Origin: a virus
Taxonomy: Duplodnaviria > Heunggongvirae > Uroviricota > Caudoviricetes
Length of the DNA: 64,000 nt
Virus record (IMG/VR): IMGVR_UViG_3300035494_000066
Direction: 5' to 3' (one strand)
Positions 18,150-19,903 of this stretch are shown piece after piece. Numbering within the stretch: the first letter of the stretch is position 1; each line of letters begins with the position of its first letter. The notes beneath the pieces are model-generated. The model was not told the DNA's origin. It ran no database searches and saw nothing but the letters and a program-made list of their open reading frames with translations. A program made the position numbers and the translations under genes.

Positions 18150-18373
18150 GGCTTTTATCCTTAGATAACCCGTCGATTATCAAAATGCTCAATAGGTTTG
18201 ATAACGAGATAAAAGCCTTAAAGAAAGAGCTCTTAAAGATATGCTGGTTTATGCGAGGGGGAGTTACTATTGATCATGCATATACTATGTCGATGCAAGA
18301 TCGCGAAATGATCTCAAAATTAATCAAAGAAAACCTAGAAACTACAAAGAAAACAGGACTTCCATTTTTCTAA
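18137..18373 (+). CDS. gp51-like small chaperone ORF, probably expressed as a -1 frameshift extension of gp26-like
   Basis: -1 frame ORF overlapping the gp26 stop at the slippery heptamer T TTT TTC. The in-frame ATG at 18185 has no SD. Contains WFMRGGVT..AY.M...DRE. Confidence 0.65.
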   Translation, partial: FFRIRLLSLDNPSIIKMLNRFDNEIKALKKELLKICWFMRGGVTIDHAYTMSMQDREMISKLIKENLETTKKTGLPFF

Positions 18374-18375
18374 TT

Positions 18376-18401
18376 AAAAAAGAGCAATATTGCTCTTTTT
18401 A
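18376..18401. terminator. Bidirectional intrinsic terminator
   Basis: AAAAAGAGCAATATTGCTCTTTTT palindrome between convergent transcription units. Confidence 0.8.
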
Positions 18402-18473
18402 TTTGATTTAAATTCCAGAACGATCCTTTCTATTACGATATGTGTTATGTATCTACAACTTCTATGTCTTTAG

Positions 18474-18523
18474 TGATGTACTTCGTACATCAAATTAATC
18501 ACTTCGTAAACTTCGTGATTAAT
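18474..18523. other. Adjacent DNA hairpins with C-GAA-G loop motif (origin-like)
   Basis: TGATGTAC-TTC-GTACATCA and AATTAATCAC...GTGATTAATT in an AT-rich non-coding stretch. Confidence 0.45.
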
Positions 18524-18609
18524 TATATTTTAAAAGATAATGTATAAAGACAACAAGTAACTAATCACATGTGATAGCAATGAACGCTATGAACGAAGTG
18601 AATAACTAC

Positions 18610-19018
18610 GCATTCATCTAGATATTGGATCCATACTTCGCCCAGGGCGGGCAAAGTAAAGTGAAATATCTTCATCTGAGTATCTCTCACCATTCAACTA
18701 AAGAAGATTTACATTATTTTTTAATCTGTTAGTTAGCGCATTTTAAAAGAGATTTGCAATGCATGTTAACAGAAAAATTAATAATGCAGCGGAGGCGGTT
18801 AGCCGGTACCCCCTACTTCAGCTTCATCCAACGGTACCTGCATACCCCGTAGTTGTCCAAGGTATAACAAGCCAGCAGTTGTATCTGTTTCACAGAGCTG
18901 CTATCATTTTGTGCCTTAAGTTAGCATTATCCTTCCAGCGCGTAACCACCATCGGCAACGAGCATGACCCCGGCTGAATCGTTACGAGTCGAGCAACCCC
19001 GACCAAACAGTGCTGGTA
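18610..19018 (-). ncRNA. Candidate large structured non-coding RNA (~410 nt), family not recognised
   Basis: At least 10 nested or adjacent helices; several pairs are G-U on the minus strand but A-C mismatches on the plus strand. No credible ORF. Confidence 0.6.
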
Positions 19019-19022
19019 TATA

Positions 19023-19155
19023 GCCTAAATTGAGTGTGCCTAAGATGTGCCTAGATCGCCTAATGCGAACAATGTGCCTAAATTGAGTGTGCCTAGATCG
19101 CCTAATGCGAACAATGTGCCTAAGATGTGCCTAGATCGCCTAATGCGAACAATGT
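19023..19155. repeat. Modular GCCTA repeat array (10 units, four module types, order ABCD-ACD-BCD)
   Basis: A=GCCTAAATTGAGTGT, B=GCCTAAGATGT, C=GCCTAGATC, D=GCCTAATGCGAACAATGT; all copies are exact. Confidence 0.95.
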
Positions 19156-19685: not shown

Positions 19686-19713
19686 ATACTATACGATTTA
19701 TTTTTATTGTCAA
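19686..19713 (-). promoter_or_regulatory. Sigma70-type promoter
   Basis: TTGACA (19713-19708), 16-nt spacer, TAGTAT (19691-19686), pointing into the nuclease gene, repeat array and structured RNA. Confidence 0.55.
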
Positions 19714-19717
19714 TATA

Positions 19718-19903
19718 TTAAAGTGAGTTTTTACGATCTTGGATTTCTTTTCGACGTTCTTTAGCTAGTTTAGCAATTTCGCCGAGTGCTTTGCGAGCCC
19801 GAGTTGCAGCAGCTTTGTTGTTCTTTGTTTCAAATGCTTCTGATTCTTTTAGGTAAGATTCGTATTGCTCGCAGATAAGATCGTGGTTTGTAGGTTCAGT
19901 CAT
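19718..19903 (-). CDS. Small basic Hc1/histone-H1-like protein
   Basis: NKAAATRARKAL.E..KL.KE.RK motif. AAGGAG SD and CTAAATA late box at 19945-19950. Confidence 0.7.
   Translation of the reverse strand: MTEPTNHDLICEQYESYLKESEAFETKNNKAAATRARKALGEIAKLAKERRKEIQDRKNSL

Follow-up and report, generated by a model that had tools for sequence, protein, structure and literature searches.

That gp32 controls its own synthesis is a textbook example of feedback on translation. To our knowledge, gp32 operators are barely known outside the phages T4, T2 and RB69, and no RNA competitor of such an operator has been described. Our literature search likewise gave no description of the AGGCA word reported here, of the present operator variant, or of an RNA competitor of the gp32 operator. 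In T4 and RB69, gp32 represses translation of its own mRNA in two steps: it recognises a 5' pseudoknot and then covers over 40 nt of a leader with little structure and several UUAAA/UAAA repeats, both parts being required (PMC535899; for the gene 32 operator of T4, T2 and RB69, McPheeters, Stormo and Gold 1988 and Shamoo et al. 1993, as cited in PMC535899). Besides this operator, the locus resembles in part the CsrB/RsmZ sponges, which are non-coding RNAs with many copies of a word also present in the leader of the regulated mRNA, and the origin iterons, which are direct repeats arranged in tandem in non-coding DNA.

The locus was analysed within a window of 64,000 nucleotides, the whole stretch of DNA under study, which belongs to the record of a T4-like jumbo phage (302,518 bp, 85%-complete). 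By blastn of the locus against GenBank phages, no match was obtained. The minus strand carries a run of genes for the gp20 portal, a gp47/gp46-like nuclease pair, an Hc1-like protein and a PDDEXK_15/RusA-like nuclease, the last of which has 59 relatives in IMG/VR. On the same strand, the nuclease gene is followed by an array of TAGGC words and by a structured non-coding RNA (Table 1). The array begins 8 nt past the nuclease stop codon, and its last core is located 7 nt from the first helix strand of the RNA (CCAGC, 19012-19016), indicating that it fills the gap between the two, as the first-pass annotation had stated. As no terminator was found between the nuclease stop codon and the array, co-transcription of nuclease, array and RNA is plausible, and the chance-level promoter match upstream of the nuclease is a possible source of such a transcript. 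The terminator-like hairpin at the other end closes the non-coding region, and is convergent with a plus-strand gene ending at 18373.

Table 1. Positions of the features of the array, the RNA and the gp32 leader (window coordinates unless marked as genome)
Feature	Position	Strand	Remarks
TAGGC array	19023..19155	minus (RNA strand)	ten cores, exact modules; GCCTA when read on the plus strand
Three tandem array units	19118-19155, 19076-19117, 19023-19075	minus	each with D' first, then C', then B' and/or A'
Predicted mini hairpin	19136..19148, again 19098-19110 and 19056-19068	minus	4-bp stem UCGC/GCGA, 5-nt loop with UAG of the core; in both MFE and centroid structures
Nuclease gene, 168 aa	19164-19670	minus	Pfam PDDEXK_15, E 1.4e-26; PHROG 244 RusA-like resolvase, E 2.9e-18
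Sigma-70-like promoter match, 10 of 12	19686..19713	minus	consensus match only, as many expected by chance; upstream of the nuclease
Terminator-like palindromic hairpin	18377..18400	. (called on plus)	T runs on both sides; weak Rfam hairpin matches
Structured RNA core, first helix to 3' hairpin	18791..19016	minus	covariation, G-U pairs
Second array, five AGGCA words	genome 20929-20980 (L192:1430-1482)		last four at 11-nt period, ending 12 nt before ATG

When read on the plus strand, every module of the array begins with GCCTA. Four module types, A (15 nt), B (11 nt), C (9 nt) and D (18 nt), were found in the order ABCD-ACD-BCD, giving ten cores in total, and within each type the copies were 100% identical. 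The core number, the exact module types and their order, all proposed at the first reading, were thus confirmed. Tandem Repeats Finder gave the array a period of 38 nt, a copy number of 3.1 and a score of 206. For 133 nt, a length shorter than a typical read, 0.13 cores are expected against the 10 observed (Poisson P for 10 or more, about 2e-16). In the window as a whole, GCCTA/TAGGC was counted 72 times, 62 of them outside the array, against 90 expected, so that elsewhere in the window the word is not enriched and perhaps under-represented. The array is the sole cluster of at least four TAGGC within 200 nt in the whole 302,518-bp genome. Intergenic TAGGC density was only slightly raised, and a role of TAGGC as a general promoter or regulatory word was rejected for lack of genome-wide enrichment; the late-promoter-like box at gp32 loci is ATAAATA. 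A CRISPR array consists of constant repeats of 23-50 nt and unique spacers, whereas here the core is only 5 nt long and the segments between cores are reused exactly, which upholds the earlier exclusion of a CRISPR array.

Exact module D had no matches in IMG/VR, and a scan of metagenome contigs gave only nine single, unrelated chance matches. The identity of all module copies indicates that the amplification is very recent; slippage, or unequal exchange, at the core common to the modules could have produced it. By the same identity, selection for the ten-copy state is not demonstrable. In structure prediction, a 4-bp mini hairpin was found in each array unit, with two or three cores after it, and the folding energy of the array was that of its shuffles (z = +0.18). 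Nor was the array unusually unstructured by prediction, the mean unpaired probability being 0.47. Several other explanations of the word were tried and dropped. A sigma-54-like reading (GG-N10-GC) fits module D' and fails on the leaders of the main clade of RNA members described below; as a Shine-Dalgarno sequence for a small ORF the word has no start codon at a suitable distance; and pairing with the tRNA-Gly anticodon and a role as Chi-like sites were both without support.

The RNA next to the array was examined by alignment of 20 diverse copies. In its covarying stems, compensatory changes on both sides numbered 11, 13 and 4, and no stem was broken; conserved G-U pairs assign the RNA to the minus strand of the window. 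Folded as a single sequence, the GC-rich stretch gave no significant structure on either strand (z of -0.17 and -1.49). As judged from these alignments, the RNA is supported by covariation and not by a single-sequence fold. The pattern of its 3' hairpin was present in at least 119 IMG/VR contigs. In a search of all 4227 Rfam families, nothing relevant was detected in the window at E up to 10 or in nine relatives at gathering score, and the same held for the family Polynucleobacter-1. The gene upstream of the RNA varies among its members, being a PDDEXK nuclease, a GIY-YIG-like ORF or another ORF, which indicates that the RNA is not tied to the nuclease; PDDEXK loci are mostly without the RNA. 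The RNA body of the window holds one internal copy of the word, AAGGCACA.

We listed the intergenic TAGGCA sites of the whole genome, and by this listing found the only other AGGCA tandem array of this phage, located in the 5' UTR of a gene for a gp32-like SSB (L192:1485-2480). The product of this gene matched PHROG 1192 (E 8e-63) and, narrowly below the cut-off, Pfam gp32 (E 2.7e-5). This second array sits 3' of a TTGACA-17-TAAAAT promoter and of a predicted 39-nt hairpin. The leader as a whole (L192:1366-1487; genome 20865-20986) consists of the promoter, overlapped by an ATAAATA late-type box, then the hairpin, then the five words up to the ATG. The T4 gene 32 operator is likewise a small 5' structure followed by repeats of a short word, and a layout of this kind stands before gp32 here and in 67 of 71 relatives. 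In position too the second array agrees with the T4 operator, as it lies in the gp32 leader and extends up to the ribosome-binding site. The two differ in the word, which is UUAAA/UAAA in the T4-type operator and AGGCA(A/T)C here, and in the 5' structure, which is a pseudoknot in T4 and a predicted hairpin here. By analogy, the leader of this gp32 gene resembles an autogenous operator of the T4 type that uses a new word.

The array of the window and the gp32 leader have in common an exact 11-mer and an exact 12-mer in the same order; each alone could be due to chance (E about 3-10). Gapped local alignment of the start of the array with the gp32 leader gave a score of 53.2, against 22.8 +/- 3.9, with a maximum of 43, for 2990 random genome segments. 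Modules D' and C' together correspond to the gp32 leader with 26 nt missing from the inside of its 5' hairpin; in the predicted fold (L192:1395-1490), the outer stem of this hairpin is retained as the mini hairpin of the array, and the shared 12-mer comes after it. The bases 3' of the core are ACA and GAU in the array, against AAC in the clade consensus. On the strength of this alignment, the array is best described as three tandem shortened copies of the phage's own gp32 leader, which amounts to an abridged form of the same layout repeated three times over. The T4 operator lies in the gp32 mRNA leader and reaches the ribosome-binding site; the array instead precedes a non-coding RNA, with no ORF.

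To see how widely the word is used ahead of gp32, 80 gp32 homologues (58-68% identity) were taken, giving 71 distinct leaders, and the 100 nt before the ATG were counted. AGGC was found within this distance in 67 of the 71 leaders, with three or more copies in 42, and the AGGCA(A/T)C word was present in 1-4 copies in 67 of the 71. AGGC was markedly enriched in the gp32 leaders: per 100 nt, they contain 2.35 copies on average, compared with 0.39 for 2380 other windows on the same strand of these loci and 0.47 for the regions upstream of other ORFs; GCCT in the gp32 leaders was at 0.04. The logo of the gp32-leader word, (A)(T/C)AGGCA(A)(C), is identical to that of the word ahead of the RNA. In 23 of the 67 leaders the last AGGC is located 10-14 nt from the ATG, and the word often abuts or overlaps the ribosome-binding site. 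As most relatives keep 2-4 copies in the gp32 leader, the copy number appears to matter for this word. Many of these gp32 loci (L193-L272) have the ATAAATA box directly 5' of a TTGACA promoter, with a terminator-like hairpin straddling the -10 box.

In the reading that we prefer, with a probability of roughly one half, the array is a set of three tandem mini-operators, serving as RNA decoy or loading sites for the factor that binds the gp32 leader, probably gp32 itself. The preference rests on the T4 precedent of a 5' structure combined with short repeats. The mini-operators would have been copied from the gp32 mRNA leader onto the 5' tail of the large structured RNA, and transcription would reach them from the nuclease gene by read-through, or start at a promoter that has escaped recognition. 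The array would then bind the factor acting on the gp32 leader, by analogy with T4 most likely gp32, which would nucleate at the small 5' structure and spread over the short repeats. With ten sites in 133 nt and one more inside the RNA, titration of this factor would raise or buffer gp32 synthesis; alternatively, the sites may serve to load the factor onto the RNA. A gp32 monomer covers about 7 nt, and at this size there would be room for nearly twenty monomers on the 133 nt of the array. On the other hand, gp32 proteins are largely sequence-independent binders, and the conservation of a GC-containing word may therefore point to another RNA-binding factor. Homologues of RegA (PF01818) and CsrA (PF02599) were not found in the 85%-complete genome.

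A protein sponge formed by a single-stranded 5' tail with UAGGC sites had been among the first suggestions for this array. The sharing of a word between sponge and target, typical of CsrB/RsmZ, was indeed observed, with ten cores and one copy in the RNA body on one side and five words in the phage's own gp32 leader on the other; the word on the 5' flank of the RNA is strand-specific and is the same as that of the gp32 leader. In CsrB/RsmZ, however, the word is GGA presented in hairpin loops, whereas here it is AGGCA, no CsrA homologue was found, and most members of the RNA family have only 1-3 words. The sponge proposal thus gains strong comparative support from the word and its strand, and the array as such is absent from the relatives examined.

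We then turn to the word ahead of the RNA in these relatives. The ten-copy array was absent from every relative examined. What is retained is a single word: in 42 of 75 anchored distinct RNA copies, one AGGC is located 35-42 nt before the conserved 5' box, that is, 11-13 nt before the first helix. A search of relatives for AGGC-type repeats at the syntenic position had been proposed at the first reading, and as a rule it is the single word that is found there. The consensus of the RNA-leader word is AGGCA-N-C, in which AGGCA is invariant and the flanks are variable. Among the flanking columns there was no covarying pairing partner for it, and pairing with GCCU of the 3' hairpin or with the UUGCC box was without support. 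In G001 and G002, two complete genomes, the form AGGCAAC is present in the gp32 leader as well as ahead of the RNA, at 12 nt from the first helix. The word is kept irrespective of the kind of upstream gene, be it a PDDEXK nuclease, a GIY-YIG-like ORF or another ORF. It is missing in about 40% of RNA members, including L051-53, L077, L095, L104, L145 and the L064 type, indicating that it is not essential to the RNA; it is a frequent accessory of the RNA 5' flank. The absence of the array from relatives that keep the RNA indicates that the ten-copy state is a recent lineage-specific amplification and not a conserved part of the RNA.

In the main clade, only 0-3 nt separate the word from the stop codon of the ORF that precedes it. 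This position and the fixed spacing to the first helix would be expected if the word were an RNA processing or stability signal, namely an endoribonuclease site or a 5' stabiliser that sets the 5' ends of both the gp32 mRNA and the RNA, with the array as a series of such signals, for there is no room for a promoter in the main clade and the RNA may need to be cut from a longer transcript. The T4 gene 32 mRNA is itself processed in its leader by RNase E. We know of no RNase, however, with specificity for the AGGCA word, and the 2-4 words that reach or overlap the gp32 ribosome-binding site suit an operator better, as cutting there would destroy the mRNA. We therefore regard processing as a rather improbable function of the word. 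In L086, L084, L071 and other main-clade loci, the ORF that ends 0-3 nt before the RNA-leader AGGC is GIY-YIG-like. The T4 GIY-YIG gene segG likewise adjoins the gene 32 operator (PMC535899), and homing-type nucleases seem to settle beside the AGGCA word.

The orientation of the word bears on the proposal, made at the first reading, that the repeats are DNA sites. Over the 400 nt ahead of the RNA, AGGC was counted 316 times and GCCT 8 times, a ratio that partly reflects coding sequence, and the word is strictly co-oriented with the RNA. If the repeats were iterons or loading sites for an initiator, a helicase loader or a recombination protein, the locus would be an origin. Compatible with such a role are the arrangement of direct repeats in tandem, the large non-coding gap that contains them, the recombination genes next to it (gp46/47-like and the resolvase-like nuclease), the nearby AT-rich stretches (18400-18560 and 18700-18780) and the three GATC sites inside the array. 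Origin iterons, however, are repeats of about 17-22 bp in helical phase with the initiator adjacent, whereas the array has a constant core of 5 nt at irregular spacings of 9, 11, 15 and 18 nt without helical phasing, and its word is tied to one strand and to 5' UTRs. No Rep-type gene is adjacent, the neighbours being the nuclease and the Hc1-like protein; the other, paralogous cluster lies within a 5' UTR, between promoter and start codon; and relatives typically have a single copy at a fixed distance from the RNA helix. The iteron proposal is therefore not supported and is regarded as very improbable. The Hc1-like (chlamydial histone H1-like) basic protein just mentioned, a small nucleic-acid-binding protein of 61 aa, is encoded near the RNA at 19718-19903 on the minus strand, just upstream of the nuclease (Pfam E 1.9e-13).

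Although the ten-copy array was absent from the relatives examined, leaders with more than one word were found among them. Two copies are present in the leaders of L082, L088, L106, L150 and L072, three in that of L093, and about 16 degenerate copies in that of L033. These leaders gained their copies independently in several lineages. They are relevant to the possibility that the array is a neutral by-product, in which ectopic recombination through AGGCA copied a piece of the gp32 leader and slippage triplicated it, the single word alone perhaps having a function. Such an origin agrees with the complete identity of the module copies and the very recent expansion it implies, with the lack of the same array in any relative examined, with the many RNA members that work with one word or none, and with the array unit being visibly a deletion derivative of the gp32 leader. 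Independent multiplication to 2, 3 and about 16 copies in several lineages argues against neutrality, as do the retention of 2-4 copies in the gp32 leaders of most relatives and, by prediction, of the hairpin-plus-repeat layout in every array unit. Taking both sides together, we consider a purely neutral array unlikely, and keep the mini-operator decoy or loading site as the preferred reading. The L033 words lie in a 470-nt AT-rich spacer between nuclease and RNA (L033:3590-3990), where about 16 words read AGGC(T/A)A; the same spacer holds two copies, each of about 60 nt, of a module resembling parts of the RNA itself.

By analogy with T4, these data suggest that a different gp32 operator word, one that contains GC, is in use throughout a clade of T4-like jumbo phages that are aquatic and uncultured. 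Occurrence of the same word on a large and widespread orphan structured RNA offers the first testable functional link for this RNA family, and in one phage the word has apparently been amplified to ten copies from its own gp32 leader, an origin that can still be read in the array. In a bolder proposal, the large RNA and its AGGCA words would serve specifically as a decoy for the autogenous operator of gp32, competing for free SSB or for another leader-binding factor. In that case the RNA would set how much SSB the phage makes, the decoy would have been amplified tenfold in this phage, and a widespread orphan phage RNA would be tied to a classic translational feedback loop; we put this forward tentatively, with the odds against it.

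Two further observations concern the surroundings of the RNA and the remaining copies of the word. A further conserved domain, noted in 18560-18700 of the minus strand, lies 3' of the RNA core and probably continues to about 18610; within it, the similar boxes CUCAGAUGA and UCUAGAUGA flank a GC hairpin, and the same arrangement is found in L033, L004, L086 and L064. With a model of the 3' half of the RNA, the 612-nt intergenic region of phage 121Q (NC_025447, 192745-193356; L181) gave no more than a weak match of 13 bits (E 0.22), and it has no leader word. As for the other intergenic TAGGCA sites of this genome, the genes behind them encode small hypothetical proteins, and no regulon is visible among them. 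Single TAGGCA words at genome positions 76805, 84220, 95370, 156543 and 159727 are located in 5' UTRs, 10-20 nt 3' of -10-like boxes. These five 5' UTRs may be further targets of the same factor. At three of the five sites, the word has the longer form CTACTAGGCAA.
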